A DNA stretch of 64,000 bases from Candidatus Kerfeldbacteria bacterium (GCA_016182555.1 JACPGJ010000008.1:386555-450554), one strand, 5' to 3'; positions 3,288 through 59,197 are shown, numbered from the stretch's first letter. A program made the numbers and translations. The notes: generated by a model not told the origin, from the letters alone.

Positions 3288-3295
3288 AAAAAAAT

Positions 3296-36704: not shown

Positions 36705-36724
36705 CAAACGTATCTAAATAAAAA

Positions 36725-36757
36725 TACTCCCCTGAAATTATTGGGGAGTATTTTTTT
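36725..36757 (+). terminator. Rho-independent terminator after the Met-rich gene
   Basis: Stem tactcccc / ggggagta with loop tgaaattatt, then T7. Confidence 0.55.
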
Positions 36758-36772
36758 GTATAACAGGTATAT

Positions 36773-40408: not shown

Positions 40409-40423
40409 AAGTGTATGTATTTA

Positions 40424-40627: not shown

Positions 40628-40644
40628 ATAGATATAAATTATTT

Positions 40645-43598: not shown

Positions 43599-44146
43599 TT
43601 ATAAAAAATTCTTTGCTGAGAATGTAACTAGTTTGCTAATCGCAATATCTGGATGCTCCTGCATGTAGTGTTGAATAAGAAGAAATCCAAGCGTGTATCC
43701 TGTCCAACGTGGAATATTGCGTTTTTTTGAACCGACGATGTGTTTCCTGTCAGGGTAAAGACAACATAATCTGCTAAGCCCTCGCTCACAATGTTGTCTG
43801 CCAACGTTTTGCCCATTACTCCTGCTTCCCAGCGTTTCACATGACACAATTCATGCGCAATGGTTTGACTAAGTACCGTATGCAAATTCTTCTTTACATC
43901 TTTGTGATCAGGATCAATCGTTATCTGCACAAAATGAGCTGAAGGAGAATATCCACCAATGCCTCCCATATTTTTCAGTGGCTCTGGATATAATGCTTCC
44001 ATCACAAGAATATCTACATTATCGATAGCCAACAACTTTTGTACTTTTTGTGATGTGTGTCGAATAATCCGTTTTGCGTCATTTTGTACTGCATTCAAAC
44101 GCCCAGAACTATTTAATACGTGAATTGAAATACTCATACTATTCAC
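43599..44146 (-). pseudogene. Frameshifted paralog of the DUF2268-like HExxH protein (4284-4958)
   Basis: Frame A (43628-44146) carries the HELCH motif and VSEGLADYV. Frame B (43599-43847) carries RNIPRWTGYTLGFLLIQHYMQEHPDIAISKLVTFSAKNFL, collinear with the intact copy. Requires one frameshift near SEGLADYV. Confidence 0.5.
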
Positions 44147-44269
44147 TGGTGTCCGGTTAATTTTTTTGAGAGGTAAGAAATTATTTGCAGGTTAGCCAAT
44201 AATTGGTATTTTTGATATTTTTCTCAAATATTGGCTAATTGTAGAATACAATACGATCTGAATGGAAAA

Positions 44270-44491
44270 TTAACGGGACACGAGTGATTTTGGTATAAAC
44301 TTTTTTTGCCATGTTTCATCATTTATTGATGAATAGCCATTTTTATTTAAATAAGGTAAGAAAATACTCTTCCATTTATCCGCAGTCATAGGATTATCGC
44401 TAGTAGATAATCCCATTTTAACTATATGTATACAATCAACATTCTGCATATCTGCTATATGTTGCATATAAGAATCCAATTTTTTATACAA
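44270..44491 (-). CDS. Hypothetical protein (73 aa)
   Basis: ORF only. Possibly the downstream half of a gene split at the poly-G tract. Confidence 0.25.
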   Translation of the reverse strand: MYKKLDSYMQHIADMQNVDCIHIVKMGLSTSDNPMTADKWKSIFLPYLNKNGYSSINDETWQKKFIPKSLVSR

Positions 44492-44595
44492 CTCTAAACC
44501 AATGCCCTTTGGTAATGTTTCTTGAGAATCAAACTTTTGAATTTGTGTATAAATTTTAAATGGTTCTTCTACCTGTCTAACATAGATAGTTAATT

Positions 44596-44895
44596 TTATG
44601 TACCCCCCCCTGATTGATTACCTAAAATAAATTCCTCATTTATATCAATCTTTTTTCTCATACCACGATTTTCAAATTCTGTAACTATTCTTCTACAATC
44701 CAATGATATACTTTGTTCACCTAAACACATATTTTCTTTTGCTTGAAATGAGGTAACATCTCTATTCCCATAAACTGGATCGGCTATTTCAGCTATCCAT
44801 TGCAAATCAGCTAATTGAAATTCTGAAAAATTCACACCTTCAATTGGACGTATAGCCAAGTCTGGGTTTTTAAAAAAATAATTTTTTTCAGTCAT
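44596..44895 (-). CDS. Hypothetical protein (99 aa) ending in a G8 homopolymer-encoded GGGT
   Basis: ORF ends two codons after an 8-nt homopolymeric tract (C8 on + at 44603-44610). Confidence 0.3.
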   Translation of the reverse strand: MTEKNYFFKNPDLAIRPIEGVNFSEFQLADLQWIAEIADPVYGNRDVTSFQAKENMCLGEQSISLDCRRIVTEFENRGMRKKIDINEEFILGNQSGGGT

Positions 44896-45112
44896 AAAAT
44901 TACTATTAAGCTATAATACTATAGCAATTTTCAAATATAATGCCAAATGCAACACATAAACCAATGTTTTGCAGATTACAAAAAAAAATTCAACCATACT
45001 TCATTTATTATTCCCGCCAACAGAACGAGTTTTAAATTTCGTTTGAAAGACAGTATTTTTTGATGTACTTAATGCACATATTTTTCAATTTGATACATCT
45101 ACATTAAACATA

Positions 45113-45754
45113 ATGAAAGACAACTGTAAAAACAGAAGGAGAAACTTGACCACATTTTCAAAAAAAAATACTGATTTATTAAGGCAAAAATTCCTTCCCC
45201 AAATTTTGTCTATTGATGCCCAGGTCACTGAACTGAAAGAATATGCCAAGCGAGAAGGGCTGAATATTGTTTATACTTTTATTGAATCACAGACCGCAAA
45301 AGAACCAGGACGACCCATATTCAACGAAATGCTTGATTTAATGGAACACGGTAATATTAATGGCACCATTTCTTGGCATCCAGATCGCTTGGCAAGAAAC
45401 TCGGTTGATGGTGGCAGAGTCATTCACTTAATTGATAGAGGAAAAATTTGTGCCCTTAAATTTCCCACTTTTTGGTTTGATAACACTCCGCAAGGAAAAT
45501 TTATGCTCAATATTGCTTTTGGGCAATCCAAATACTACATCGACAATTTATCCGAGAATGTCGCTTTTGATAAAGATTATGAAGAACTGAGCAATTTCCT
45601 CAAAACGGTCGGCTTGAACGCCCAATTGCGGGAGCGGAAGGTGGAACTGCAATTCAAAAAACCCTTTCAACTGCTACACAAAACGCGCCTTCGGTTCGGC
45701 GCGCTCGTGGAACAAAATTCACTTCATCCTTACTGGCTGACCGCTGTGGTCTAG
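45113..45754 (+). pseudogene. Serine recombinase (resolvase/integrase) catalytic-domain remnant
   Basis: ILSIDAQVTELKEYAKREGLNIV and SWHPDRLARN match resolvase motifs (GYSLEAQ..., DRLxR). The catalytic RVSTxxQ serine block is missing. The 3' third is GC-rich and non-homologous. Confidence 0.5.
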
Positions 45755-45846
45755 AACCTCGGCCATTGCAACCTAGTATACAGTATTTTCCGAGTTACCA
45801 ACAAGGCACCTGAGTCACTTACAGGAGGCAGTAAAAATTTATTAAG

Positions 45847-46878
45847 CTACACCTTTTTTTGAGCACCCACTAAATACCAACCATATTCTTTATAATTTTG
45901 GTCAAGGACTTGTTGCCCCTCATCATTAATTTTGCTCCCATATAACTTGTCTGCTTCTTTCTGAAATCTCAGCATTTGTTTAGTTGCAGAAATAGGAGGA
46001 GAGAGAGTTTTCCATTGTTGTCCTAAACTAGCAAGATCTGATTGAGTTTTAGTAAATTTTTTGTAATTACTTTTTCTCGCTTTAGCTTGAAAAGTTGTAT
46101 CTCCATGCTTTTGGGTAATAGAAAGGTTTTGGGACATCCCCATAATAACACTTGCTTGTTCCTTAGTATATTTATCCAAAATATTAGTTAAATTACCATA
46201 CCCCAAGCTTGAATCAAACATCGATTTTTCATAGTAACAATCAATTTTACTTTGCCCAAGAATTTCTTTTATATGATCCGGATCTCTAATGTCACCATTC
46301 GCAATAGTAATCTCTCGTAATCGTTTTTGCGATTCACCTGGATACGCCCAAGGAAAAGATAACTGAATAGAACATGCTCCCTGAACTTTACTAATTTGTA
46401 CTTTATGGAGATCAACTCCTAAAGAACGTAACTCTAATATAATTAGATATGCTGCGTCACTTTCCTCAATAATATTTGCATGATAGAATCCAGATCGTCT
46501 TTTCTTGAATAAAATTTCTTTATTAATAGGATTTTCATCTTGCCATTCATCAATAATTTTCTGAAAATTTTCTACCTGAACCGGACCATAACTCAACCCA
46601 CCAAATTTAATATCAACTCCAATAACATGTGTGGCATCCGACAATAATAATGCCGAACTAATATCAGGGCCAATCCCGCCATACAAGATGCCAAACTCGC
46701 TGTCTTTTTGTGTGGCTGCAGCATCTCCCCTGATTCTTTCTTTCCAACTCATAAAATAGGCTGCCTGTTCTGGAGAATATAAACCACTCTCAACAATAGA
46801 AGATCGTTTAGCAGTATCAAAAATGCGCTTGTACTCAGGATCAATATTATTTCGTTCTATTGTTGATCTTGGTTCCAT
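45847..46878 (-). CDS. Hypothetical 343-aa protein (weak class I MTase-like GxG motif)
   Basis: GILYGGIGPDISSALLLSDATHVIGVDI resembles SAM-MTase motif I/post-I. Otherwise unassigned. Confidence 0.35.
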   Translation of the reverse strand: MEPRSTIERNNIDPEYKRIFDTAKRSSIVESGLYSPEQAAYFMSWKERIRGDAAATQKDSEFGILYGGIGPDISSALLLSDATHVIGVDIKFGGLSYGPVQVENFQKIIDEWQDENPINKEILFKKRRSGFYHANIIEESDAAYLIILELRSLGVDLHKVQISKVQGACSIQLSFPWAYPGESQKRLREITIANGDIRDPDHIKEILGQSKIDCYYEKSMFDSSLGYGNLTNILDKYTKEQASVIMGMSQNLSITQKHGDTTFQAKARKSNYKKFTKTQSDLASLGQQWKTLSPPISATKQMLRFQKEADKLYGSKINDEGQQVLDQNYKEYGWYLVGAQKKV

Positions 46879-46925
46879 ACTAATATAATGCTGTATATTT
46901 TAGGTTGGCGGGTCACCTCTAGAAC

Positions 46926-47000
46926 TTTGTAAACTTGGCTGGGGAGGTAGGGATCGAACCCACGAATGGCAGGACCAGAACCTGCTGCCTTACCGCTTGG
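46926..47000 (-). tRNA. tRNA-Gln (anticodon CTG), CCA encoded
   Basis: TGGGGAG acceptor (U1:A72 as in bacterial tRNA-Gln). Anticodon arm GCAGG-TTCTGGT-CCTGC. T-arm GTGGG-TTCGATC-CCTAC. 3' end CTCCCCA-G-CCA. Confidence 0.8.
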
Positions 47001-47091
47001 CGACTCCCCAATAGAGTTTCTATACAATAGCGAACCAGCCAAAAAATTTCAAGAGCACCATAACAGAGCACCGTATAGATGCAACGTTTTC

Positions 47092-48738
47092 CTACTCTGC
47101 TTGCGCTTTTGGTTGCCCAAATGCCGTGCTCGCTAAATCCCACACATTGGCCACCTCTTCTTCCGAAGGTTGTTCAATATTCGTCACTGGGTTATCTGCT
47201 TTTTTACCGTATTCTTTGCCAATGATCACCTCGACCATCACTGGACCGCCAAATATTTTCTCAAATACTGTGCCGATGACCGGAATATTACGTGCATCCC
47301 GTAATCGGTCTTGATAAAATTGATATTCGAAACCGAGTGTGACCGTATTCCCTTCCGCTGCAACAATTTGCCCCACTTGCAATGTGACATGCAACCCATG
47401 ATTATGGTGTTTCATCTCTTCAAGAACAGCGCTCCATTGCGCCTCAACAGCCTCAATACTGAGGGTTATCGGCAACCGTGGTTTATCCGGTTGAACCGAA
47501 GTTGCTTGTGTGGTGGGTCGCTGCTGACGAATGGTCGATGGCGCAACTGATGCTATTTTTTTTCCTATGCTCGTTGGAGTTGAACGTGGGGCTGTCGTTT
47601 GCTTGGATGGTGGAAGTGTAGACGTTGCCGGCAGACGAACCGGTAAGGGCTTCTCTTTCGCCGAATCAATAATCGCCAATTCTATAGGAAGCTGTGGAAT
47701 GCTTGCAGAACGAAGCTGCTCTGCGGCGCGCATCCAAACATGAATGATCCGTGATAGATCATTCGTACCAAAATCCATGACCAACGTTTTCAGAACTTCC
47801 TGTTCACTACTCACTGCCATATAGTCGAAGACATTGGTGTCTTGCTGAACACTGTACAATAATAACGCACGTAAAAATTCAATAGCATCTTTCGTGAATT
47901 GTGTAAGCACCGCTCCGTCATGATATAGTCGGTTCACTCTCGTTATTGCTGCGGCAATATCTTTTTTCTGAATTTCTTGAAAAAGATTGATCAATTCATC
48001 AGCATCCGAATACGGTAATACTTGGCGTGCAGCGGCCAAGGTAATTGGTGAACTCTGTAAAGACAATACTTGCCCAAGCAAACTTTCTGCATCTCGTAAT
48101 GCTCCTTCACAACGCCGAGTAATAGCATGAAGCACTTCTGGATCCACTTCCACTCCCTCCGCCTGGGCAATATGTGTGAGTCGAGCGACAACATCCGCAG
48201 GGCGAATCGTATGAAACGTAAAACGCTCGCAACGTGAAGCAATCGTGGCTGGCACTTTATGTATTTCAGTAGTGGCCAGAATAAAGATCGTCTGTTTCGG
48301 TGGTTCTTCCAATGTTTTCAATAAAGCATTAAACGCTGAAGTTGATAACATATGCACTTCATCGATGATAAATACTTTCCAAGGCAATCGTGAAGGTGCT
48401 ACACGAGCATTTTCAATAATATGTTCACGCACATGATCTACACCGGTATGCGACGCGGCATCAATTTCCACAACATCTAAAGCGCGGTTTTGCAAAATAC
48501 TCACGCAATATTCACAGGTATTACATGGCTCTCCGTCTGTTATTTGTTGACAGTTTACTGCACGCGCCAGCAACCGAGCCGTACTGGTTTTCCCGGTGCC
48601 GCGTGGACCACAAAATAAATAGGCGTGCGCAACAGCCTGGTCACGGAGTTCATTCTGCAATGTGGTGCGAATATGCTCTTGGCCGACCATGTCGGCAAAT
48701 CGTTGTGGTCGATATTTTTGATATAAGGATGTAGACAT
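47092..48738 (-). CDS. dnaX: DNA polymerase III subunit gamma/tau
   Basis: LYQKYRPQRFADMVGQEHI, Walker A GPRGTGKTSTARLLARAVNC, zinc module CNTCEYC, DEVHML. Confidence 0.9.
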   Translation of the reverse strand: MSTSLYQKYRPQRFADMVGQEHIRTTLQNELRDQAVAHAYLFCGPRGTGKTSTARLLARAVNCQQITDGEPCNTCEYCVSILQNRALDVVEIDAASHTGVDHVREHIIENARVAPSRLPWKVFIIDEVHMLSTSAFNALLKTLEEPPKQTIFILATTEIHKVPATIASRCERFTFHTIRPADVVARLTHIAQAEGVEVDPEVLHAITRRCEGALRDAESLLGQVLSLQSSPITLAAARQVLPYSDADELINLFQEIQKKDIAAAITRVNRLYHDGAVLTQFTKDAIEFLRALLLYSVQQDTNVFDYMAVSSEQEVLKTLVMDFGTNDLSRIIHVWMRAAEQLRSASIPQLPIELAIIDSAKEKPLPVRLPATSTLPPSKQTTAPRSTPTSIGKKIASVAPSTIRQQRPTTQATSVQPDKPRLPITLSIEAVEAQWSAVLEEMKHHNHGLHVTLQVGQIVAAEGNTVTLGFEYQFYQDRLRDARNIPVIGTVFEKIFGGPVMVEVIIGKEYGKKADNPVTNIEQPSEEEVANVWDLASTAFGQPKAQAE

Positions 48739-48743: not shown

Positions 48744-49403
48744 TTAAATTAACTCTGCATTGGATCCCCCACCCAGTTCTAAGTCATCGCCCATCGGCAG
48801 TTCCGCGTTCATGCCGTCATTCAACAATAGTTGCATGTGCGCATCCATATCATCAACATCATCGGTCTGCTTAATCACATTTTCAACCGCTGCCCAACGA
48901 GCCGGCATATCTGCTGGAATCAACATAATCACTCCGTCATTTGGTTCACCTTTATAATACGTCACGCTCGCGGTAATGAGGCGATAACTTTTTCCGCGTT
49001 GGGTCACAACCCGGTATGCACCAGTTTCAGCATCGCGAACAAGCGTACCAACTTCTCGGTTCCGTTTCACTGGTCCAATTTGCTTGTAAATAAATGATCC
49101 ATCTTGCTTAATGGTCAACTTCATAATATCGCCTTCAACCAACTTCGACTTACTCGCATAATTAGCAGGAACAGTGTACACACGACCATCAGGACCCACC
49201 ATATTTTGACCATCAAAAACCCCTTCAATAATAGTATCGCGATTATCAGATTCAACACTGCCAAATTCGAGCGCTTTTTCTTTCGATGCCCGTTGTTCGT
49301 CCACTGGACCAAGCGAATCGAGTAACTGTTGAACCTGAGTGAGCTGCGCTTGAATATCTTCAATTTTACGATGAATTTTCTCTACGAATGGTTCTTGATT
49401 CAT
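48744..49403 (-). CDS. Conserved hypothetical protein (219 aa)
   Basis: Directly downstream of dnaX on the same strand. No recognizable motif. Confidence 0.35.
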   Translation of the reverse strand: MNQEPFVEKIHRKIEDIQAQLTQVQQLLDSLGPVDEQRASKEKALEFGSVESDNRDTIIEGVFDGQNMVGPDGRVYTVPANYASKSKLVEGDIMKLTIKQDGSFIYKQIGPVKRNREVGTLVRDAETGAYRVVTQRGKSYRLITASVTYYKGEPNDGVIMLIPADMPARWAAVENVIKQTDDVDDMDAHMQLLLNDGMNAELPMGDDLELGGGSNAELI

Positions 49404-49539: not shown

Positions 49540-49890
49540 CTATGCAGGCAAAGCAAAAGAATCATCGTTGATTTCCTCTTCTGTTTGCTGACCGCGCAAT
49601 TTTTGAATCATAATCCGTTCTTGCGCAAATAATCTATTCAACTCTTCAATATTATGATCAACTAATAACTGTTTTTTCTTTTTGACATAATCCACCACCG
49701 TACGAATTTTTTCTGGATGATCCATAAAATAATCCATTGCCCCTTCCATTTGCTCTGGAGCCAACATATCAAGAATACGAAAAAATACATCTTGCTCACC
49801 CCGTGTTAAATCCTGAAATGGATCTAATGGAGCAAATGTTTCCGGTTCACCAAATTCATCTAATTGTTCATCCTCCTGATACGCTGCCAT
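49540..49890 (-). CDS. Hypothetical acidic protein (116 aa)
   Basis: ORF with high Asp/Glu content. Confidence 0.3.
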   Translation of the reverse strand: MAAYQEDEQLDEFGEPETFAPLDPFQDLTRGEQDVFFRILDMLAPEQMEGAMDYFMDHPEKIRTVVDYVKKKKQLLVDHNIEELNRLFAQERIMIQKLRGQQTEEEINDDSFALPA

Positions 49891-49905
49891 AGAAAATTTC
49901 CTTAA

Positions 49906-50172
49906 TTATGCGGCATGTCTTGCGGTAAAACGTTCTTTAAAACGCTCTTCAACTTCAGCGGCTGGTGCTACACCCTCGGCTAAAGCCAAGTTGCCGGTTT
50001 CAGTCATTTGAAAACTATCAAAAGCATTTGAACCTTCTTGAACCAAAGATTCAAGAACTACAAAAACCCCTGCTAAACCTTCACGTTGTTCTTTAGGCAA
50101 TGGAGCAATACGTTCATCGAGAGAACCTTCGGTTTTGCGCTCTTTTGCGTTTCCAATAGTGCGTTCATCCAT
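49906..50172 (-). CDS. Hypothetical protein (88 aa)
   Basis: ORF only. Confidence 0.3.
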   Translation of the reverse strand: MDERTIGNAKERKTEGSLDERIAPLPKEQREGLAGVFVVLESLVQEGSNAFDSFQMTETGNLALAEGVAPAAEVEERFKERFTARHAA

Positions 50173-50263: not shown

Positions 50264-53200
50264 TTAAGAAGGAAATGGGGTCCACATAAACTCTGTTTGG
50301 CCACGTTTATTCAACAATTTTACTCGTTTTTTCTGGATATGAATACGAAATTTTTTGTGGTGTATAGGAAAATAGCGAGCTAATTTTCTCAACGTAAATT
50401 TTGCTGTTGCGGTGTTATAAGAAAAAATTTTAAAGTAAATCGTTGCCCCACGTTTTGTACCCATCACCACTTCAACAGTGCTATTGGTTTGATCCAAATT
50501 ACCCACCGCAATTTTGCGTAAATGTAATTTCGGAGACAACCGTTTCTTCTTCAAAATGGTTCCTAATTTAGAGTATACGTGTGTCGTCGTACCTGTTTTA
50601 TTTTTCACAGTAAAAATATACGCCGCTCCACTCACGCTTATCAACCGTGGAGAAACTCCACCAATAGCAAATGCTTCCCAGGAAGCCACCAATTCATTTT
50701 GCTTATTATACACATAGACAATCCCTTTTCCTTTTCGTTTACCACTCACATGATCCACATCAATCTCGGCTCCACTTTCATCCGGTTCTGAAACCGTCAC
50801 CGTTATCTCATTACTCGTTGCACTCGCACCTTGTGGGTCGCGTGCACGAAAATAAATATCTTCGCTACCCGCAAAATAATCTGGTGCAGACATCGTCACA
50901 TTCCCCTCATCATCAATATCCACCGTAATCACGTCTGTACCAACTGCACTGAAGGTGAGTACATCCCCATCCGCATCAGAAAAATAATCGCTCAAATTAA
51001 ACAGGGTATTCGTGGTATCCCCGGCGAGAAAAGAAATATTATCTACACTGCCGGAAAACACCGGAGCCATATTTTCGCCTTCCCCATTACTTTCATACGC
51101 CCCCATATCAACTCCATTTCCTCGTGGCCGACCGGTTCCGAAATAATCAGTTGCCGGCGCATTTGCTGTATCTCCTTCATCCACCACAATAGATTCATCA
51201 GAAATGTTGCCAGAGAGAATTTGATATGACACACCAGAAGAAACGAAATCGGACAATTCATAATCTGTGCTGGTATATAGCGTCAACGTATTTCCGGTAT
51301 GCTGTTGAATCATCCAAACGTGACGCTTCGTTATATCCGTGGTGGCATCAGCAACGAGAAAATAGGGAACGCCAGCTTCAGACATGTCCCATTCACTCTG
51401 TGTCCATGTCGCTGAAGTATCTGTCAATGTGTCGGCGGTGATGCTTGTACTGATGCCAGAAGCCTCTTCCTCAAATAGATTGGTGTCTGCAATGGCAATG
51501 CTCTGATCACCACTCTCCGGGCAATCTGGTGTTGCCGCAAAAAAATTCGTTTCGTTATAGTAACTATAATTATAATTTTCGGTCACGTTTGGGTTACTCG
51601 TCACACAAGTAATGCCACCGCCGTCGCCATACGCCACGATATTATTGAATACCGTAAATGCCGCCGTTGCATCATTCAAGGTCAATTGACCAACATTCGA
51701 TTCTGTAGAACGATTACCCAAAAACGTATTATTGCGAATGCTACCACTCGTATTCATCGCGCTGGCGAGATATCCATAATCATCATTACCAACAACAAAA
51801 TTGTTTTCAATAGTTCCCGGGGTACAGGCAATACCAGAGCCATTACCCGCCACCACACTGGTGCTCAATGAACAGTTATCAAATGTACCATCTACTGCTG
51901 CTGTACCATTACCAGCAATAATTGTATCTTCTACGATCAACTGAGCCGTGTCATCTACACCGCTAATCCCCGCACCCGTTACCGCAGAAATTAAAGAACG
52001 ATCAATCGTTGTGGAAGATGACCCAACATCAATACCATTCTGTCCACAGGATCGTAATTCAACAGAGTCCACAGTCATGATACTGGAGGAGGAAGCGCCG
52101 CCAGCCAGAATACAACTCCCACCAAATTCACCAATAATCATATCTTTAACCGTCGCTTGAGTGAGTGCGCTATCATTCATGATGACCGCCGGAGCATTTG
52201 TGAAATATAATCCAAGCAACGTGGTCGTGTCCTGACCAGTGCGCCCGGCTCCATCAATAATTAAATTTTTGGAACCGAGGTCAATATATTCTACAAAAAC
52301 ACCATAGGGGACGGTAATGGTTTCTCCACTACTGGCTGCAGACACAGCTTCCGCAATAGAATCATACGTTCCCCCACCTCCGCTTCGAGTCACACCATTA
52401 TGGACAAAAACAACCACGTCAAATGAATCGTCACTTTGCACCGTGTTCGTATGATCAATAACAGAAAAATGAAACGTATAATTCGGAATCACTGAAGGAG
52501 TAAAGCTCGGTGTGGCAGTTTGTTCATTTGTGACGGTCAAGGAACTCCCTTCTTGTGTGAAAACATACGTTTTCGCATCACCTTCTGCTATGGAATCACT
52601 AAAATCGAATGTGACTAATTCATTTATCGTGGAATGGATATTTCGTTTAGCTACTACGGGAACAGGAACACTCGCTGTTCCACCCGTAAAACCCATATCA
52701 TTTTGCGAAAGATCATCATCATCATACCGGTCACTAGGATCCCCCGCATTTCTTGCTGACGAAAGCGATTGCAATGTGACATTTGTGACGACATACGGAT
52801 CACCATGGTTGCTACTCGTTTCATAGTTCAACATACTATAACTATTACTGGTACTAGCAACCGTAATAGTCGTAGCGGTATTGGACAGAATATACCAGGC
52901 ACGACGATTCGTACTATTGTTCGTTGTATTTGCAAATAAAAATGAACCAGCAAACTGATTCGCCGTCCAAGATGTACTGGTATCGGTCAGGATGGTATTT
53001 GTCAAATCGCTCGTGTTGCCGGACGCGTTTGTTGTAAATAACGGATCACTGGTGATACCATTACTGAATGTACATTCCGTACTATCTTCATCACCATTGG
53101 TATTATTATAGATATCATTATACGCTGCATCACAGCTCGTCACTGTTTCACTAGTCGTATCAATCGCATTCACATTATTATGAGCGATAATGTTATTGTG

Positions 53201-54565
53201 AATATCTAACGTTTGCAACATATTCTCTGACAAATCTATACCATCTGAATCATTGGCGAGTATCGTGTTGTTGCGGATATACACACTGATGGGGTAATAA
53301 TTTTCTGCTCCCACAACCCGAATACCACTACCGTCTGTTCCAGCCGTACCATTACCGATAATTTTATTATGGTCAACAACGATAGTGCGTTCTTGCGTGG
53401 TGGCGGAATCTGTCTGCAAAAAATCAGCAAATATTCCATTCAATCCATTGCTTGCAATCGTATTATCATGAATAAATGCTGTGGCCTGTGCATCAACCAA
53501 CGCAATACCGGAACCATTGTTATCGACGATATCGCAATCATACACGGTCCCACCAGCTTCCGTCGTTTCTGTACTCATGATTGCCACGCCATCACTCATC
53601 GCATTACGGATAGAAAATCCATGTAATTTTGACCTCAACGTTGTCCCCTCATCAAAGACGACCGCACGCTGGTTTCCACTGGCATCAATAATACTACTAT
53701 TATTCCCAGTCGCACCATTTCCGTTAATATCAATACTCTTTCCGTCAAAATCAACTGATTCCTGATATGTTCCTGCAGCCACCATAATCACATCACCATG
53801 AGAAGATTGATCAATGGTGTAATTGATAGTTAAACAAGGAGAACTTTGGCTAGTGCACGACCCAGTATCAACCCCTCCAGTATCATCGACATATCTCTCC
53901 GTGCGCGTCGTAAAAGCAGAAGCCGCTGACCACGCAGAATCACCGTTACTGTTTGTATAACGCACAAAAGCATAATAGGTGGTATTTGGAGTCAACGTGG
54001 TTGCCACCGTTACTTGTTCACGATCAGTCGTGTCATTATCTTGGCTCCAAACTACACTACTCCCACCACTATCGCTGGTGACTTTCCAATCGGTAGAATC
54101 GTGAAACGCAGAAGAACGATATGTTGAACCAACCAATATTGGATTGAGGCCTATTCCAGCTAAACCAGCACTTGGATAAATGATTGTTGGAGTGTCTGGT
54201 TCATTCGCTGCATGCGTTGGCGATTGCACCAAAAAAATACCATTCGTGCTAACGATAATGATAATAACGATGATCGTTGAGAGCGCACTGGCTTGAACAC
54301 GCCGATGCCAGCGACGATGCTGCGTATAGGAATGCATATATCCTGTATGTGGGTCCACGGTGTAGGCCATAGAAAATACGGAAGCCGGCGGAAGAAATAA
54401 CACCATGACGGTATATGTCAGCGCAAAAACCACATACGCAAAAAATAACACCACACTCAACAAAAAACGGTTGAGAAAAAAATTTCCTTGGTCGCGTACA
54501 CGCGTTTCAATACGAAAAATATATCCTTGTATCTGCGAATAAAGAAAAGAAAATATTCTCCCCAT
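50264..54565 (-). CDS. Giant surface protein (1433 aa): two-TM leader, FN3-like domain, long right-handed parallel beta-helix (PbH1-type) region, cadherin/Ig-like domain, conserved basic C-terminal domain
   Basis: Leader loop DPHTGYMHSYTQHRRWHRR and FN3-like block DWKVTSDSGGSSVVWS...YYAFVRYTNSNGDSAWS are shared with the 12291-16970 product. Many NNTI/NNII asparagine-ladder repeats. C-terminal APVFSGSVDNISFLAGDTTNTLFNLSDYFSDADGDVLTFS plus Lys-rich tail are homologous to the other giant protein. Confidence 0.7.
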   Translation of the reverse strand: MGRIFSFLYSQIQGYIFRIETRVRDQGNFFLNRFLLSVVLFFAYVVFALTYTVMVLFLPPASVFSMAYTVDPHTGYMHSYTQHRRWHRRVQASALSTIIVIIIIVSTNGIFLVQSPTHAANEPDTPTIIYPSAGLAGIGLNPILVGSTYRSSAFHDSTDWKVTSDSGGSSVVWSQDNDTTDREQVTVATTLTPNTTYYAFVRYTNSNGDSAWSAASAFTTRTERYVDDTGGVDTGSCTSQSSPCLTINYTIDQSSHGDVIMVAAGTYQESVDFDGKSIDINGNGATGNNSSIIDASGNQRAVVFDEGTTLRSKLHGFSIRNAMSDGVAIMSTETTEAGGTVYDCDIVDNNGSGIALVDAQATAFIHDNTIASNGLNGIFADFLQTDSATTQERTIVVDHNKIIGNGTAGTDGSGIRVVGAENYYPISVYIRNNTILANDSDGIDLSENMLQTLDIHNNIIAHNNVNAIDTTSETVTSCDAAYNDIYNNTNGDEDSTECTFSNGITSDPLFTTNASGNTSDLTNTILTDTSTSWTANQFAGSFLFANTTNNSTNRRAWYILSNTATTITVASTSNSYSMLNYETSSNHGDPYVVTNVTLQSLSSARNAGDPSDRYDDDDLSQNDMGFTGGTASVPVPVVAKRNIHSTINELVTFDFSDSIAEGDAKTYVFTQEGSSLTVTNEQTATPSFTPSVIPNYTFHFSVIDHTNTVQSDDSFDVVVFVHNGVTRSGGGGTYDSIAEAVSAASSGETITVPYGVFVEYIDLGSKNLIIDGAGRTGQDTTTLLGLYFTNAPAVIMNDSALTQATVKDMIIGEFGGSCILAGGASSSSIMTVDSVELRSCGQNGIDVGSSSTTIDRSLISAVTGAGISGVDDTAQLIVEDTIIAGNGTAAVDGTFDNCSLSTSVVAGNGSGIACTPGTIENNFVVGNDDYGYLASAMNTSGSIRNNTFLGNRSTESNVGQLTLNDATAAFTVFNNIVAYGDGGGITCVTSNPNVTENYNYSYYNETNFFAATPDCPESGDQSIAIADTNLFEEEASGISTSITADTLTDTSATWTQSEWDMSEAGVPYFLVADATTDITKRHVWMIQQHTGNTLTLYTSTDYELSDFVSSGVSYQILSGNISDESIVVDEGDTANAPATDYFGTGRPRGNGVDMGAYESNGEGENMAPVFSGSVDNISFLAGDTTNTLFNLSDYFSDADGDVLTFSAVGTDVITVDIDDEGNVTMSAPDYFAGSEDIYFRARDPQGASATSNEITVTVSEPDESGAEIDVDHVSGKRKGKGIVYVYNKQNELVASWEAFAIGGVSPRLISVSGAAYIFTVKNKTGTTTHVYSKLGTILKKKRLSPKLHLRKIAVGNLDQTNSTVEVVMGTKRGATIYFKIFSYNTATAKFTLRKLARYFPIHHKKFRIHIQKKRVKLLNKRGQTEFMWTPFPS

Positions 54566-54574
54566 GTTGAATGA

Positions 54575-57109
54575 TTAAATAAAAGATTCTGGACCAGTCA
54601 TGCCACCACCACCAAGCTTATCCCACTGGGCACGTTCGCGAATCGTATCTTCCACTTCTTGGCGGTCACGTCCATATTTCATGCGTGATAATTCTCGGAG
54701 TAATGGGCTCATTGAGCGGTTACCATCTGGTGGCAAAATCGTATTCATATTGAATGGCCGTGATGCGGTATTATCAATCAATAACTTAATATTCGCCGTA
54801 TACTGCTCTACATTAATAATATCGTTTTTATTAAAAACCGGAATAAATTCTTTTTCCAGAAATTCGGCGTCTTCCGCGCCTACACGAAATGCCGCCATCG
54901 TACCTGCGTTCCCAAACACCGCATCGCGAATTTTTGTATCGTTATTTGTGGTCAGTTGCGCAATATACTGGTGAGCCATAATCAAATTCAACAAATATTT
55001 ACGAGCTTCAGATAAAATCGTCGCAATCGAATCGGTAGAAAAATTTTGAAATTCGTCCATGTATAAGTAAAAATCTTTGCGTTTTTCTTTTGGCATATCG
55101 GCACGCGCCATTGCGGCCATCTGAATTTTTGACACCATGATTAACCCCAACAAACTAGAGTTCACTTCTCCAATTTTTCCTTTAGACAAATTCACTAACA
55201 AAATCTTTTGGTTATCCATTACATCACGCAAATTAAACGCTGAACGGGACTGACCAATGATATTACGCATCATGTCATTGGTCAGGAAACGACCAATTTT
55301 CGAAATCACGTAAGACAACATATCTGCCGCAGATTGCCCAGCTTGCGACTGTTCATATTCCTGTTCCCAAAAATTTTTCACAATCATGTTTTTCACTTTC
55401 GCTACCTTCTCTTTGCGGAATTTATCATCCGTGAACATGCGTGGAATTTCAATCAACGTTGCTCCGGCTTCTTTGTCTTCCATCAATGCCAACATGGCGT
55501 TACGCATGTAGTGTTCAAACATCGGGCCAATCATTTCTTGACCAAACAATTTGTAGAAAATAGCCACCATCTCCTGCACCGCAAAATCTTTCTGTTCATC
55601 ATTTTCATATTCCAACATGTTCAATCCCATTGGTCGCGTACTATCCGACGGATCAAAAATAATCACATCGTCTATGCGCTCTTTTGGAATGTGCGGCAAA
55701 ATATCTTCCACTAATTCTCCATGCGGATCAATCACGCCAACCCCTTCTCCATTTTGGATATCTTGCAACGCCATTTGGGTCAACAACACCGATTTACCGG
55801 AACCAGATTTACCAATCACATACATATGGCGTCGGCGGTCGGCGCGTTTAATACGCACCATAGTTTCAGTGCTACGATATTTCACCTTTCCAATAATAAT
55901 CCCCTCTTTCGGCATATTCGCGGGTGGTGCAGATTTGCGCGCCATGAGCCAGCGAATATTTGGTGTTTCCGTCGTCGGTAATGGCAAATGCCACAATGAC
56001 GCCATTTCTTTGGTGTTCAATACAAAGCTGTGTTTTGAATCAAACGTACGATAAATAAAACTATTCACCAAATCTTGTTTGTCACTTGGTTTACTGGCCA
56101 CAAATTTATTGCCATATTGGTAACCCGCATATTGCGAAAACACATTCAAAATATTCATCAGTTTTGATTCGGCCTGTTGTGGGCTTGGGCCCGAAGCAAT
56201 CACCCGAATATTCACATCAAAACCAGATTTGGATGTTTTTTCTTCCAACGATTTCACTATTTGGTCTTCCATAGGTGACAAACGGTAATCTCGGTCGGTT
56301 TGTGGATCAATACCAGAATCCCGTTTTGATTTCTTGGGGAAAAATGTGTGCCAAATTTCACGAAATGCTTTTACAAAAATATTGGACATCACTTCGTTAT
56401 AGGCTTGCTCCATACTTTTCCCCTGCTGCATGGTGTGCGCCACTTTTGACGGGTATTCATGCCAATCTGCTTTTGCCGAACGAATAACAAACTGAATGGC
56501 TGCGCCTTCATTTTTTTCAAACTTGGACAAGACATTCGTAATCGCATTCAACGGATCAGATTCCATTTTGTCGTATGTTTGAATCGCAAACATTTGATCT
56601 TTGTCCAGCTTCAGCGAAGAGGCCACAATCGCTCCTTGCGGATCAAAAATATTGTAATCCTCAACTTCATAAATTTCTGCCGTTTCATATTGTGCTTGAA
56701 TTTGGTGTTCAAAATACTGCTTCATATAGCGGGGCACCGCCGCATAAAATGTCACCTGGCCTTCTTTATCTGCCACAATTTCAAGTGATAGATGATCGTT
56801 GCGACCAAAGAGAAAATGCATAAACCCACGCTGTGCTTTTACACCGCCAAGTGTAGCGAAAAATACTTCGGCAACAGAAATTTTTTCTTTAATCTGGTCT
56901 CCGCTTGGCGGCTGGCTACTCTCATCTTCTTGTCCTTCTTTCGGAATCAGAATTTGCAACACCACCATGTGGAAGGCGCTAGGACGTTTCAAACTGCGCT
57001 GAATAATATGGCGAATTACTAACAACACCAGAAATAAAAATACCCCAGAAAGCAAAACATATCCGATGATCAGAATAATGCTATTGAGTGCTAAAATAGT
57101 ATCCAACAT
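54575..57109 (-). CDS. Membrane-anchored VirB4/TrbE-like (TraG/FtsK/HerA superfamily) P-loop ATPase with ~400-aa unique N-terminal domain
   Basis: N-terminal TM segment. Walker A YVIGKSGSGKSVLL followed by IDPHGE. Walker B FYLYMDEFQNF. RK...LIMAHQYIAQL motif analogous to the VirB4/VirD4 RK...TQS..QL box. Walker A is mid-protein, as in VirB4. Confidence 0.6.
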   Translation of the reverse strand: MLDTILALNSIILIIGYVLLSGVFLFLVLLVIRHIIQRSLKRPSAFHMVVLQILIPKEGQEDESSQPPSGDQIKEKISVAEVFFATLGGVKAQRGFMHFLFGRNDHLSLEIVADKEGQVTFYAAVPRYMKQYFEHQIQAQYETAEIYEVEDYNIFDPQGAIVASSLKLDKDQMFAIQTYDKMESDPLNAITNVLSKFEKNEGAAIQFVIRSAKADWHEYPSKVAHTMQQGKSMEQAYNEVMSNIFVKAFREIWHTFFPKKSKRDSGIDPQTDRDYRLSPMEDQIVKSLEEKTSKSGFDVNIRVIASGPSPQQAESKLMNILNVFSQYAGYQYGNKFVASKPSDKQDLVNSFIYRTFDSKHSFVLNTKEMASLWHLPLPTTETPNIRWLMARKSAPPANMPKEGIIIGKVKYRSTETMVRIKRADRRRHMYVIGKSGSGKSVLLTQMALQDIQNGEGVGVIDPHGELVEDILPHIPKERIDDVIIFDPSDSTRPMGLNMLEYENDEQKDFAVQEMVAIFYKLFGQEMIGPMFEHYMRNAMLALMEDKEAGATLIEIPRMFTDDKFRKEKVAKVKNMIVKNFWEQEYEQSQAGQSAADMLSYVISKIGRFLTNDMMRNIIGQSRSAFNLRDVMDNQKILLVNLSKGKIGEVNSSLLGLIMVSKIQMAAMARADMPKEKRKDFYLYMDEFQNFSTDSIATILSEARKYLLNLIMAHQYIAQLTTNNDTKIRDAVFGNAGTMAAFRVGAEDAEFLEKEFIPVFNKNDIINVEQYTANIKLLIDNTASRPFNMNTILPPDGNRSMSPLLRELSRMKYGRDRQEVEDTIRERAQWDKLGGGGMTGPESFI

Positions 57110-57117
57110 CTTGCGTG

Positions 57118-57765
57118 CTATTGGCCAAACTGTTTAGTGCGCTGTTCTTTGCGTAACTTGCGTTGGAGCTTCATCATACGGTCGGTTTTAATTTTGGATT
57201 CCTGTTCAAGAAAGTATTTATTCACGCGCGGAATGGTTGCTAACCAATCACGAATCAACTGTAATACGCGCCGAGCGGTGGCGGAAAATGTGGTCATCAT
57301 CTGTTCAATAGCGCTAGCAGATTCCTCTCCTTTTGTTCGGAATTTTAACTGTTCTTCTGGGGTCATCGATTGATAAATTTTGGTTAAACCATCAGATAAA
57401 ATAGATTCAATATCAACACGAGCGGCGGTTTTTACTGGAACAATAGGCGCAACCGGAGCGACGGGCTGTTGAACAGCGGTCGTCGTGCCCCGCACTCCCG
57501 GGCGCTGCACTTCTGGAATAGCCGGCTGTTGTTGGTCATAGGAAATTTCTTGTTCTTGCTTGTTTTTTTCAACAGGGATGGGAGCAGTAACTTCTGGCTG
57601 GGGTGCCGTCACCGGATAATTCAAAGAAACCTCCGGTGGTTGAGGCGACAATGGTGCATCCAGGACAATACCTAAGTCCTGCTCTTTGCCTCTTTTTTTG
57701 TTCTTACTTAAGATCGGCATGAAATATGAAAAATATGCAAAAAGGATGTAGCTAGTATAACACAA
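57118..57765 (-). CDS. Proline-rich membrane-anchored protein (215 aa), first gene of putative ATPase/giant-protein operon
   Basis: N-terminal hydrophobic segment, PxP-rich spacer (PQPPEVSLNYPVTAPQPEVTAPIPV...QPVAPVAPIVPV), helical basic C-terminus. 9-nt gap to the ATPase gene. Confidence 0.4.
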   Translation of the reverse strand: MCYTSYILFAYFSYFMPILSKNKKRGKEQDLGIVLDAPLSPQPPEVSLNYPVTAPQPEVTAPIPVEKNKQEQEISYDQQQPAIPEVQRPGVRGTTTAVQQPVAPVAPIVPVKTAARVDIESILSDGLTKIYQSMTPEEQLKFRTKGEESASAIEQMMTTFSATARRVLQLIRDWLATIPRVNKYFLEQESKIKTDRMMKLQRKLRKEQRTKQFGQ

Positions 57766-57802: not shown

Positions 57803-59197
57803 ATGACACTACAACTGTTTAATACGATGTCGCGCCAAAAGGAAGTATTTACTCCCCTGGCTCCTCCGTCGGTTTCCTTATATACCTGTGGATTGACGGT
57901 CTATGATTATGCGCATATTGGTAATTTGCGTGCATTTATTTTTGAAGATGTGTTGCGGCGGGTATTCGTCGCCAATGGGTATACCGTAAAACATGTACAA
58001 AATATTACCGACGTGGGGCATTTAACCGATGATGGAGATAGTGGTGAAGACAAAATGGAGAAAGGCGCCGCGCGCGAAGGCAAAACCGCTTGGGATATTG
58101 CGAAATTTTTTACTGCCGCGTTTCGTGAAGACGCCGCGGCATTGCATATTGTATTACCCGCATTGATGCCCAAAGCCACTGAACATATTCCAGAGCAAAT
58201 TGCGTTAATTGAACAACTAGAAAAAAAAGATTTTACCTATCGTATTGATGACGGCATCTACTTTGACACCAGTAAATTAACAGATTACGGAAAATTAGCT
58301 CAACTGGATATTGCGGGCTTGCAAGAAGGTGCACGTGTAGAAAAAAATGTGCAGAAAAAAAACGCCACTGACTTTGCGCTGTGGAAATTTTCCCCGGCTG
58401 GTGTAAGACGCGATATGGAATGGAATTCACCGTGGGGCGTTGGCTTCCCTGGGTGGCACATTGAATGTTCAGCGATGGCGATGAAATATTTAGGTGAAAC
58501 GATTGATGTTCATGCAGGAGGAGTGGATCATATTGCTGTACATCATACGAATGAAATTGCGCAATCTGAGGCGGTAACGGGGAAACCGTTTGCGCGTGTT
58601 TGGATGCATGGCGAATTTTTGTTGGTCGACGGGCAAAAAATGAGCAAGTCGAAACAAAATTTTTATCGGGTCACGGATATTATTGAACACGGCTTTGACC
58701 CGCTCGCCTACCGATATTTGTTATTGGGTGCGCACTACCGTTCGAAATTAAACTTTACCTGGGCCGCATTGAAAGGCGCACAGCAAGCCTACGATAAATT
58801 GATCACCCTTTGTGCGGGGTGGGAAGAAGGTGGAAGTGTCCTGGAAGAGTTTCGCGTGCAGTTTTTGGCGGCACTGAACGATGATTTGAATACTCCCCAA
58901 GCACTAGCTGTGCTGTGGGAGATGGTGAAATCTTCTGCCGAACCAGCAGATAAAAAAACGACACTACTGGCAATGGATGAGCTACTCGGATTATCTTTGT
59001 TCTCCAAAGCCGAAGCACTGCGTACGCACCTGGCAGAACTGGGTGGCAAAATGGAAGTGCTTATACGTGAGCGTGAAGAAGCACGCGCGGAAAAAAATTA
59101 TGAACGAGCAGATGCGTTGCGCGCAGAAATTCTGCACATGGGTATTCAGGTAGAAGATAGCGCAGAAGGACCAATATTGAAATTGGCACGCGCATGA
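57803..59197 (+). CDS. cysS: Cysteine--tRNA ligase
   Basis: HIGH-class motif region (YTCGLTVYDYAHIGNLRA), Zn ligands, KMSKS. Confidence 0.9.
   Translation: MTLQLFNTMSRQKEVFTPLAPPSVSLYTCGLTVYDYAHIGNLRAFIFEDVLRRVFVANGYTVKHVQNITDVGHLTDDGDSGEDKMEKGAAREGKTAWDIAKFFTAAFREDAAALHIVLPALMPKATEHIPEQIALIEQLEKKDFTYRIDDGIYFDTSKLTDYGKLAQLDIAGLQEGARVEKNVQKKNATDFALWKFSPAGVRRDMEWNSPWGVGFPGWHIECSAMAMKYLGETIDVHAGGVDHIAVHHTNEIAQSEAVTGKPFARVWMHGEFLLVDGQKMSKSKQNFYRVTDIIEHGFDPLAYRYLLLGAHYRSKLNFTWAALKGAQQAYDKLITLCAGWEEGGSVLEEFRVQFLAALNDDLNTPQALAVLWEMVKSSAEPADKKTTLLAMDELLGLSLFSKAEALRTHLAELGGKMEVLIREREEARAEKNYERADALRAEILHMGIQVEDSAEGPILKLARA

Follow-up and report, generated by a model that had tools for sequence, protein, structure and literature searches.

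Introduction

Among the ATPases of type IV secretion systems (T4SSs), VirB4 docks onto VirB3 and VirB8, while classical coupling proteins of the VirD4/TrwB type (T4CPs) usually carry two N-terminal transmembrane (TM) helices. In the PrgB/PrgC plus PrgJ/VirB4 module of pCF10, the genes of a large surface protein and of a T4SS-family ATPase lie close to each other; PrgB belongs there to a complete T4SS operon, and its export is independent of the ATPase.

In Patescibacteria, Quinonero-Coronel et al. 2025 counted 5,713 VirD4-like T4CP homologues in 2,918 of 3,035 genomes, figures which cover roughly two homologues per genome, not all of which may belong to the DUF8128 family discussed below; just 148 of them lie near virB4 (PMC12102498). 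VirB4 was found in 2,417 genomes, fewer than the T4CP homologues, and in class ABY1 virB4 is grouped with comF, recG and radA (PMC12102498). In the one organism tested, Southlakia, the T4SS is essential and the t4cp homologue, which may not be of the DUF8128 type, is non-essential (PMC12102498), the T4SS cluster itself being without a recognizable coupling protein (PMC10633639). T4CP-like ATPases located away from a T4SS in almost every CPR genome are of interest to both the Patescibacteria and the type IV secretion fields.

The window analysed here is the whole of a 64-kb stretch of a Candidatus Kerfeldbacteria (Patescibacteria/CPR) chromosome. An earlier note had tentatively interpreted three of its genes, coding for a Pro-rich protein (gene 1), an ATPase and a giant beta-helix protein, as a minimal, self-contained export or display system, in which the ATPase, assisted by the small protein, would use ATP to push the giant to the surface. 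The results presented below make another reading probable, namely that a conserved unit of gene 1 and a T4CP-type ATPase adjoins an unrelated, lineage-specific giant, that the corresponding channel is encoded elsewhere and that the giant is not the dedicated cargo of the ATPase.

Locus organisation

The three minus-strand ORFs taken for one module (57118-57765, 54575-57109 and 50264-54565) are all present, and proteins identical to their products (P0001, P0121 and P0381) were found in the NCBI records of a 598-kb Kerfeldbacteria contig. The first ORF, however, had been over-extended to 215 aa from a TTG: the ATG at 57720 is kept across 64 homologues and is also the start chosen by gene callers. 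As for the spacers, said to be of 9 nt each, this value is right between the ATPase and giant genes, but gene 1 and the ATPase gene are separated by 8 nt. The features of the locus are listed in Table 1.

Table 1. Features of the Kerfeldbacteria locus and of its paralogous giant, in window coordinates
Feature	Coordinates	Strand	Basis
Small partner protein (gene 1), 200 aa	57118..57720	-	Conserved start in homologues, no hydrophobic segment
Membrane-anchored T4CP-family ATPase, 844 aa	54575..57109	-	Pfam, NCBIfam and PDB matches
ATPase N-terminal TM helix, residues about 8-40	56990..57088	-	Hydropathy and model
ATPase DUF8128 domain, residues 44-402	55904..56980	-	Pfam; VirB4 N-terminal-domain-like fold in model
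ATPase TrwB/VirB4/HerA-type P-loop domain with helical insertion	54620..55900	-	
Giant surface protein, 1,433 aa	50264..54565	-	Beta_helix and choice_anch_Q matches
N-terminal anchor domain of the giant, residues 1-119	54209..54565	-	Common to the paralogue and the L003/L004 ORFs
C-terminal Ig-like module and basic domain of the giant, residues 1165-1433	50267..51073	-	Common to the paralogue
Paralogous giant, 1,559 aa	12291..16970	+	Identity to the giant; Pfam matches
Two small acidic proteins, 88 aa (49906-50172) and 116 aa (49540-49890; w49540)	49540..50172	-	
Conserved cytoplasmic 219-aa protein w48744, motif NYASKSKLVEGD	48744..49403	-	Homologue in 58 loci
dnaX (DNA polymerase III gamma/tau), downstream housekeeping flank	47092..48738	-	NCBIfam PRK05563, 2e-147
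cysS, divergent upstream housekeeping flank	57803..59197	+	Pfam tRNA-synt_1e, 1.6e-97

The intergenic region between cysS and gene 1 measures 82 nt, and a weak promoter-like match for gene 1 was found at 57809-57781, overall site counts being at chance level. Promoter and terminator scans between 46.8 and 58 kb returned as many sites as shuffled controls (27 vs. 28.7 and 9 vs. 10.4, respectively) and are uninformative on operon structure. Since its 9-nt spacing is tight, the giant gene is probably co-transcribed with that of the ATPase, and some functional link between the two may exist in this one lineage. At about 57.8 kb, a GC-skew and strand switch was observed; a replication origin was considered at this point, where no DnaA-box cluster was found.

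The ATPase

The ATPase was correctly assigned to the T4SS ATPase superfamily. Concerning its description as VirB4/TraG-type, the TraG part and the motifs hold, but the sequence profiles are those of VirD4/TrwB/TraG-type proteins and not of VirB4. Pfam matches are TrwB_AAD_bind (38.7 bits, cutoff 20.5), spanning residues 421-744, DUF87 (26.8, cutoff 23.2) and TraG-D_C (25.9, cutoff 22), and the best PDB sequence matches are TrwB (9e-7) followed by DotL (2e-4). Profiles of VirB4 (CagE_TrbE_VirB, AAA_10, TraC_F_IV and P-loop_TraG) matched neither the whole ATPase at E<=0.01 nor its N-domain at E<=10, and the combination that marks FtsK/SpoIIIE (the FtsK_SpoIIIE motor profile, a multi-TM N-terminus and a gamma domain) was not found in the ATPase. 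In NCBIfam, the best match is the VirD4-like CD1115 family (NF045973; 8e-15), with 54.6 bits vs. a cutoff of 250; the scores, far under every curated T4CP equivalog cutoff (CD1115, TraD, TrbC), argue against full T4CP membership.

Walker A (GKSGSGKS) corresponds to residues 433-440 and Walker B to D685-E686; together with R703-K704 and H713/Q714/Q718/L719, they are invariant in 66 sequences, and the catalytic residues are all intact. The protein has one N-terminal TM helix (hydropathy segment 1-40; modelled helix 10-46). Because a basic stretch, RHIIQRSLKR, comes after this helix, the bulk of the ATPase is predicted to be cytoplasmic by the positive-inside rule. In the AF2 model (pLDDT 84.4), eight helices are inserted between the Walker A and Walker B motifs, at residues about 504-632. 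This insertion may correspond in position to the T4CP all-alpha domain; VirB4 C-terminal domains also have a helical insertion there.

As a whole, 5,337 homologues were found at E<=1e-3; those with a named source are labelled as Patescibacteria/CPR, occasionally just as "bacterium", and annotated as T4SS DNA-binding or conjugative DNA transfer proteins. The unusually long DUF8128 proteins (1,078-2,006 aa) contain T4CP domains only in a Pfam scan, with no informative fusions. A HerA-type defence ATPase was also considered and rejected, as the PADLOC matches are weak (mad8, 3e-13; HerA, 3e-6), no neighbour fits a defence model and the context is one of conserved housekeeping genes.

The DUF8128 domain and its plasmid relatives

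The N-terminal region of the ATPase, described in the earlier note as a novel domain of ~400 aa, is an already annotated Pfam family, DUF8128 (PF26449). PF26449 has a precomputed match on the ATPase at E<=1e-5 and is present on all 120 ATPase homologues among the matches listed. The region is matched by 1,728 cluster representatives and, in nearly every full-length protein listed, lies at the N-terminus; the ATPase fits this architecture, i.e. an N-terminal TM helix, DUF8128 and the P-loop domain. The modelled domain matches TrwK/VirB4 only, with TM-scores of 0.41-0.44, and DUF8128 is predicted from this structural similarity to be a VirB4 N-terminal-domain (NTD)-like fold, the AlphaFold model being built from a 15-sequence alignment. 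At the sequence level, the region has no match in Pfam (E<=10) or among PDB sequences, and no profile similarity to the VirB4-like protein of Embleya. No paper was found in a full-text search for "DUF8128".

The overall architecture, which could not initially be placed in any described secretion system, is that of a T4CP subfamily which also has a member in the complete T4SS cluster of an actinobacterial plasmid. In Embleya sp. NBC_00896, the 812-aa plasmid protein WP_331738717.1 aligns with the ATPase family over 670 columns, including DUF8128 (hhalign probability 100, E 1e-50). Its gene is located between those of a VirB4-like ATPase, matching AAA_10, TraC_F_IV and P-loop_TraG, and a Replic_Relax protein, in a cluster that also has TrbL/VirB6-like, PrgI/VirB3-like and NlpC/P60 genes. 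On a haloarchaeal plasmid (Halomontanus rarus), DUF8128 is encoded by an ORF of its own, which overlaps the beginning of the T4CP gene, and this stand-alone domain aligns with that of the ATPase with an hhalign probability of 99.1.

The small partner protein

The description of gene 1 as coding for a Pro-rich membrane protein is right as to composition, the variable N-terminal half being Pro/Gln/Glu-rich and probably disordered, but no TM segment is present: no 19-residue window reaches a Kyte-Doolittle value of 1.6, and the product is taken to be cytoplasmic. The C-terminal domain, of about 95 aa, is conserved and helical, with the motif IPGVNKYFLEQESKIKTD and ten residues invariant in the alignment (G131, W159, P164, N167, Q173, E174, K176, K178, T179 and D180).

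In 62 other loci, the ATPase gene is immediately preceded by a gene 1 homologue; the gap has a median of about 3 nt, and the starts overlap in 15 of these pairs. Both genes form a conserved, tightly and translationally coupled two-gene unit, and the gene order suggests that their products may interact. Gene 1 has no match in Pfam, NCBIfam or PADLOC, and its profile retrieved nothing under E 0.26 from the PDB. Nor was any similarity found with small ORFs that precede very remote DUF8128 proteins (L095 and L097), with the XF1762 protein of the Embleya cluster or with the DUF5663 protein adjoining the Rhodococcus homologue.

Chromosomal neighbourhood

Across 75 loci from other species, the order small protein, ATPase, 200-260-aa protein and dnaX is kept, with cysS nearby; dnaX is present in 59 of these loci and cysS in 55. 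Homologues of w48744, which has no match in Pfam or NCBIfam, usually lie between the ATPase and dnaX genes. Their median distance from the ATPase gene is 63 nt, vs. 3 nt for that of gene 1, and w48744 is probably a unit separate from the gene 1-ATPase pair. In about 12 loci, an ORF of about 177 aa lies between the ATPase and w48744 genes; it was considered as a pilin or partner and discarded, as it codes for a membrane-anchored SAM-methyltransferase-like protein with a DLGSGDGR motif.

That the window has no other T4SS components, as reported, is in line with Pfam scans run on 38 of its ORFs, a set that does not comprise every small ORF. Relaxase genes were likewise not found across the 64 kb, nor were VirB3/PrgI, VirB6 or VirB8 genes, either there or in the conserved neighbourhood.

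These data bear on the idea that the ATPase and the giant are the remnant of an integrated conjugative element or plasmid. Homologues of the C-terminal half of the ATPase were indeed found on 299 plasmids as well as in IMG/VR contigs, and a resolvase gene and a low-GC stretch adjoin a tRNA-Gln about 5 kb downstream. However, the ATPase gene is flanked by cysS, dnaX and w48744 in the majority of the 75 loci, although these come from different species, which reflects vertical inheritance rather than mobility. Moreover, the GC content of the ATPase and giant genes (0.42-0.43) equals that of their surroundings, and none of the adjacent genes codes for a relaxase, an integrase or a T4SS component. 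This origin was rejected on the conserved housekeeping synteny and is highly improbable.

The giant surface protein and its variable slot

As reported previously, the giant is a parallel beta-helix protein: three Beta_helix stretches (2.7e-12) and a choice-of-anchor Q domain (choice_anch_Q, 1.4e-8) were confirmed. From its N-terminus, it consists of a hydrophobic anchor (segments 28-64 and 88-117), an FN3-like module, two beta-helix regions, an Ig/cadherin-like module and a basic, beta-rich C-terminal domain. A search among 5.8 billion proteins returned the giant itself and an FN3 fragment only, without any orthologue; as it also missed the paralogue in the window, this search has a limited sensitivity for such a low-complexity giant. 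The paralogue has the N-terminal anchor (32% identity over 113 aa), the FN3-like module and the C-terminal domain in common with the giant; the C-termini share 46% identity over 267 aa (E 2e-68), of which the basic domain represents about 150 aa. Pfam matches of the paralogue are DUF2341, Big_9 and a K319L-like PKD.

In the five Kerfeldbacteria loci nearest to this one, with ATPases 70-78% identical, the position of the giant has other, variable contents. The 116-aa w49540 is kept in all five (L002, L003, L004, L082 and L083, by tblastn), and it marks the far edge of a variable slot which, counted from the ATPase gene, ranges from about 0.3 to about 4.4 kb and differs in content per genome. 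In L003 and L004, stand-alone ORFs of 139 and 145 aa following the ATPase gene correspond to the N-terminal anchor domain of the giant, with 38% identity over 76 aa for L003 and a weaker similarity for L004 (blastp E 0.004; tblastn 8e-4).

This distribution can be set against the dedicated export system proposed in the earlier note. Such a system would account for the shared strand of the three genes, their short spacers (8-9 nt) and junctions without a terminator-like hairpin, for the giant-type 2-TM domain encoded right after the ATPase in L003 and L004, and for the unrelated giants, of a different protein family, encoded directly downstream of the ATPase in two distant genomes (L013 and L016). 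However, among the 75 loci of other species not one has a homologue of the full giant beside the ATPase, the giant and the 2-TM ORF are both missing from three of the five nearest relatives, and two giant neighbours in 75 loci represent no enrichment over a base rate of 0.8% (P=0.12). The ATPase family extends to nearly the whole phylum, the giant being a singleton, and the paralogue with the same anchor, 38 kb away, has no ATPase gene beside it. In addition, a hexamer with one TM helix per subunit offers no obvious channel, and the giant has a signal-anchor-like segment of its own. The adjacency is not conserved, a result that the earlier note itself had named as contrary to its model, and dedicated export of the giant by its neighbours is highly improbable. 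The giant is a lineage-specific occupant of the variable slot, found at this position in this genome only; it belongs to the many CPR surface proteins that evolve fast, and its place in the genome exemplifies such an insertion slot.

Proposed function

In the preferred reading, a conserved gene 1-ATPase unit next to an unrelated giant, the ATPase would form a membrane-anchored hexamer whose VirB4-NTD-like domain may dock onto small membrane partners, the protein encoded upstream acting as an auxiliary or adaptor subunit. ATP would be spent to recruit a substrate, either protein or nucleic acid, or to translocate it through a channel whose genes lie elsewhere; the best candidate would be the chromosomal patescibacterial T4SS, which has no coupling protein in its own gene cluster. 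As for the giant, its gene would ride on the ATPase transcript, and the protein is presumably exported, like its paralogue, by the general secretory pathway, because of its own N-terminal hydrophobic anchor.

The 64-kb window contains no T4SS gene, which speaks against a T4SS link. A T4SS-independent role is quite possible, because genomes with a T4CP outnumber those with VirB4 and because the t4cp homologue of Southlakia is non-essential (PMC12102498). Along these lines, the DUF8128 ATPase and its small partner could be a housekeeping membrane translocase of nucleic acids in Patescibacteria, involved for example in chromosome or nucleic-acid handling at division, or in the uptake of host nucleic acids. 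Such a role would explain the replication-gene neighbourhood; we consider it unlikely in this specific form, though well ahead of the export and mobile-element readings. More doubtful is the view that the ATPase is a hybrid, with a VirB3-like anchor, a VirB4-like N-terminal domain and a VirD4-like motor, which together with its phylum-specific small partner would be either a T4SS-independent translocase of nearly all Patescibacteria or a VirB4-VirD4 intermediate. Were this true, the hybrid could import or handle host-derived nucleic acids or proteins during epibiotic parasitism, and a surviving intermediate would inform the divergence of the T4SS ATPases VirB4 and VirD4.

Comparison with known systems

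The locus shares with the pCF10 module a large surface protein encoded near a T4SS-family ATPase, but it has no T4SS operon, and the giant-ATPase adjacency is restricted to one genome. The minimal secretion system that had been proposed does not exist; what the locus has is an orphan T4CP of Patescibacteria, together with a partner that is conserved but unannotated.

With VirD4/TrwB T4CPs (TrwB of R388, DotL/IcmO, Cag-beta), the ATPase has in common the FtsK/HerA-superfamily P-loop domain, the T4CP profile matches and intact Walker A and B motifs. It differs from them by its one TM helix, vs. usually two, by the extra DUF8128 of about 360 aa between this helix and the ATPase domain, and by its chromosomal gene, with no T4SS or relaxase gene in the 64-kb window. 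Compared to VirB4 (TrwK of R388, VirB3-VirB4 fusions), the modelled fold of the N-terminal domain appears alike, whereas no VirB4 profile matches the ATPase and the gene context, flanked by cysS and dnaX, is different.

The orphan T4CP homologues of Quinonero-Coronel et al. 2025 share with the ATPase the phylum, the VirD4-like class, the distance from virB4 and the NCBI names; their study is a census and does not describe the VirB4-NTD-like DUF8128, the coupled small protein or the neighbourhood with cysS and dnaX (PMC12102498). The DUF8128 T4CPs of Embleya and Halomontanus lie within T4SS clusters (VirB4-like, PrgI, TrbL-like and Replic_Relax genes), whereas the patescibacterial copy is an orphan between housekeeping genes, with a conserved small upstream partner that has no detectable counterpart in these clusters. 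The VirB4-NTD-like domain, the coupled small protein and the Embleya homologue in the position of a coupling protein provide handles for experiments in the genetically tractable Saccharibacteria. Across both domains of life, these DUF8128 T4CPs and the Kerfeldbacteria ATPase are homologous in sequence and in full-length architecture.

The three genes and the family of the ATPase

The window belongs to a chromosome of Candidatus Kerfeldbacteria (Patescibacteria/CPR). Three adjacent minus-strand ORFs (gene 1, the ATPase and the giant surface protein) were found by ORF check at the positions assigned in the earlier note, and the three-gene arrangement itself is real. Each protein is identical to an NCBI entry, all from one 598-kb MAG contig, and a Logan assembly contig also carries the ATPase gene. 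The 9-nt spacing reported for both junctions holds between the ATPase and giant genes, that between gene 1 and the ATPase being 8 nt. Gene 1 had been extended to 57765, but its true start is the ATG at 57720 (200 aa), which gene callers choose and which 64 homologues share. It had also been taken for a membrane protein; hydropathy shows no hydrophobic segment, and the product is predicted to be soluble. In the homologue alignment, its N-terminal half is variable and Pro/Gln/Glu-rich, and its conserved C-terminal domain of ~95 aa contains …IPGVNKYFLEQESKIKTD….

As for the ATPase, the Pfam profiles TrwB_AAD_bind, TraG-D_C and DUF87 each matched above cutoff; the best NCBIfam match was a VirD4-like family, but with a score far under that family's cutoff, and the closest solved structures were TrwB and DotL. 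Profile searches with VirB4 and FtsK gave no match. The former description as VirB4-like is therefore kept as regards a T4SS ATPase and abandoned as regards VirB4, the sequence placing the protein in the coupling-protein branch (T4CP, VirD4/TrwB type). No variation was seen among 66 homologues in Walker A, Walker B, the RK pair or the HQ..QL box.

The N-terminal region, first thought to be novel, corresponds to Pfam DUF8128 (PF26449), precomputed on the window protein and on 120 of the 120 homologues listed. DUF8128 has 1,728 matches among 1.84 billion cluster representatives, is N-terminal in the matching proteins (mostly starting 40-90 residues in), and is mentioned in no paper found by full-text literature search. 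When the domain was modelled alone, as the earlier note had suggested (pLDDT 81.9, pTM 0.81), Foldseek hits 1-13 were all chains of TrwK, the VirB4 of R388; sequence-profile comparisons gave no support for this likeness. The model suggests a VirB4-NTD-like fold. Given this modelled fold and the sequence matches of the motor, the ATPase would therefore join a VirD4-like motor to a VirB4-NTD-like domain and a membrane helix. Separately, some DUF8128 proteins (P0344, P0363, P0364, P0372 and P0375; 1,694-2,006 aa) have double the usual length, and no Pfam match was found in their C-terminal 900-1,100 residues.

Coordinates of the features discussed (window positions unless a locus is named)
Feature	Position	Strand	Size or match
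Gene 1	57118-57720	-	200 aa
ATPase	54575-57109	-	844 aa
Giant protein	50264-54565	-	1,433 aa
Giant paralogue	12291-16970	+	
w48744	48744-49403	-	219 aa
dnaX	47092-48738	-	
cysS	57803-59197	+	
parA/parB	2361-4117		
DnaA-box-like pair	7036-7056		
Group I catalytic intron	8247-8477	+	Rfam RF00028, whole model covered, 54.2 bits vs. a gathering score of 50
Small ORFs flanking intron	7300-7791; 8599-9123		
Heliorhodopsin gene	26308-27090	-	Pfam PF18761, E 6.5e-102
TrmB-type regulators	25513-26271; 31088-31855		
Metal-handling cluster	33729-42486	-	
Low-GC stretch	43600-47010		
Serine resolvase gene	45113-45754		
ORF in low-GC stretch	45847-46878		343 aa
tRNA-Gln	46936-47010		
Anchor-domain ORF, L003	12498-12917		139 aa
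Anchor-domain ORF, L004	6929-7366		145 aa
Split form, L101	9800-14012		378 aa and 1,027 aa
Short ORF, L084	4944-6242		
Short ORF, L085	4959-6707		

Conservation of the locus

One genome per species was scanned. From the 584 relatives obtained, 80 loci were retained, and their ORFs were called and compared with the window genes. The ATPase ORF is intact in 75 of these 80, and the recurrent order is cysS, gene 1 homologue, ATPase, a 200-260-aa protein (homologue of w48744) and dnaX. In a search of 82 sequences (L001 and the window in addition to the 80 loci), homologues of gene 1, w48744, dnaX and cysS were found in 64, 58, 59 and 55, respectively. Coupling is tight between gene 1 and the ATPase, with a median gap of ~3 nt and 15 overlapping pairs; the gap between the ATPase and w48744 is loose (median 63 nt).

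Six Kerfeldbacteria loci have the order gene 1, ATPase, a variable slot of 0.3-4.4 kb, w49540 (a 116-aa protein), w48744 and dnaX, the slot contents differing in every one of the six genomes. The GTDB class ABY1 includes Kerfeldbacteria. In this class, virB4 is grouped with comF, recG and radA, not dnaX (Quiñonero-Coronel et al. 2025, PMC12102498).

A 174-204-aa protein with an N-terminal TM helix recurs after the ATPase and before the w48744 homologue (L008, L012, L013, L014, L016, L032, L060, L064 and L074); its DLGSGDGR motif is SAM-methyltransferase-like. This slot after the ATPase is so occupied in ~12 genomes.

The giant surface protein

The giant protein starts with a hydrophobic anchor and contains β-helix repeats as well as a choice-of-anchor Q motif, and essentially no orthologue was found in 5.8 billion proteins by a search of limited sensitivity for such a protein. 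Its paralogue in the window resembles it in the N-terminal anchor, at 32% identity, and over the C-terminal 267 residues, at 46% identity; an FN3-like module is also common to both.

The earlier note suggested that gene 1, the ATPase and the giant may be a dedicated ATP-driven export or display system, a proposal refuted, on grounds that the note itself had set, by the comparison of relatives: a giant homologue adjoins the ATPase in none of the 75 loci with an intact ATPase gene, its position holds nothing but small ORFs in the relatives with the most similar ATPases (78% and 76% identity), and the paralogue has no ATPase nearby. A giant ORF lies directly downstream of the ATPase only in L013 and L016, two related genomes, and belongs to another family; these 2 of 75, vs. 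a base rate of 0.8% for ORFs ≥1,000 aa long, represent no enrichment (P=0.12). The sole point in favour comes from L003 and L004, two other Kerfeldbacteria, where stand-alone copies of the giant's anchor domain (the L004 match being marginal), each with two hydrophobic segments, directly follow and overlap the ATPase gene. Since three of the six Kerfeldbacteria loci are concerned and the paralogue is unlinked, we read these ORFs as reflecting shared ancestry of the slot occupant, not coupling to the ATPase.

Relatives outside Patescibacteria

The DUF8128 ATPase architecture also occurs outside Patescibacteria. Relatives of the C-terminal ATPase half were found by tblastn on 299 plasmid records, and DUF8128 alone matched on 33 plasmids, chiefly haloarchaeal. 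An 812-aa protein of an Embleya plasmid could be aligned to the family profile along 670 columns, DUF8128 part included (probability 100, E 1e-50). Its neighbourhood is a textbook monoderm T4SS cluster, in the order TrbL/VirB6-like, PrgI/VirB3, XF1762 family protein, VirB4-like ATPase, the homologue, Replic_Relax and NlpC/P60 hydrolase, the ATPase before the homologue being truly VirB4-like by its AAA_10, TraC_F_IV and P-loop_TraG matches. On the Halomontanus rarus plasmid NZ_CP135525 (L101), the architecture is split: a separate DUF8128 ORF, preceded by a 1,108-aa TraM-recognition-domain protein, overlaps the start of the T4CP gene. These T4SS and T4CP contexts of plasmid homologues provide the best evidence that the family functions as a coupling-type ATPase.

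Concerning the IMG/VR contigs L084-L094, ORFs related only to the C-terminal ATPase half (27-45% identity) were observed; the three checked (L084, L085 and L089) measure 411-582 aa, without TM helix and DUF8128, and at least L085 has cellular neighbours (tRNA synthetase and Na/Pi cotransporter). They probably represent a second family of T4CP-like paralogues, soluble ones, which may account for the approximately two T4CP homologues per Patescibacteria genome (PMC12102498).

Other features of the window

Small ORFs flank the group I intron, and TrmB-type regulators flank the heliorhodopsin gene. The metal-handling cluster comprises a 613-aa fusion protein (HMA-DsbD_2-cupredoxin) and two P-type ATPases, one of 691 aa and another of 1,211 aa that carries two HMA domains. 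The low-GC stretch (0.34 at 44-46 kb) carries the serine resolvase gene and small orphan ORFs, ends at tRNA-Gln and may be a small integrated element; its 343-aa ORF has a homologue in none of the related loci. At ~57.7-57.8 kb, the divergent gene 1/cysS junction, the genes switch orientation and the GC skew reverses its sign; no DnaA-box cluster was found there, the sole close pair of DnaA-box-like sites in the window scan lying a few kb from parA/parB.

Comparison with known systems

The ATPase belongs to the DUF8128-type T4CPs, a family that is known and annotated but whose function is uncharacterized. What is new here is the VirB4-NTD-like fold predicted for DUF8128, the small partner that is conserved and coupled to the ATPase, the conservation of the cysS-dnaX neighbourhood and the tie of the family to a complete actinobacterial T4SS cluster. 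An ATPase hexamer would couple or translocate a substrate, with docking possibly via the N-terminal domain. A 2025 review (PMC12857230) emphasizes that T4CPs act together with auxiliary subunits; gene 1 may tentatively be regarded as such an adaptor or auxiliary subunit of the ATPase.

Wang et al. 2023 (PMC10633639) found the T4SS of Southlakia to be essential and recognized no coupling protein in its cluster. Among 3,035 Patescibacteria genomes, 2,918 were reported to carry VirD4-like T4CP homologues, 5,713 in total, and just 148 of these homologues are near virB4; the Southlakia homologue is non-essential, and exaptation was considered possible by the authors (PMC12102498).
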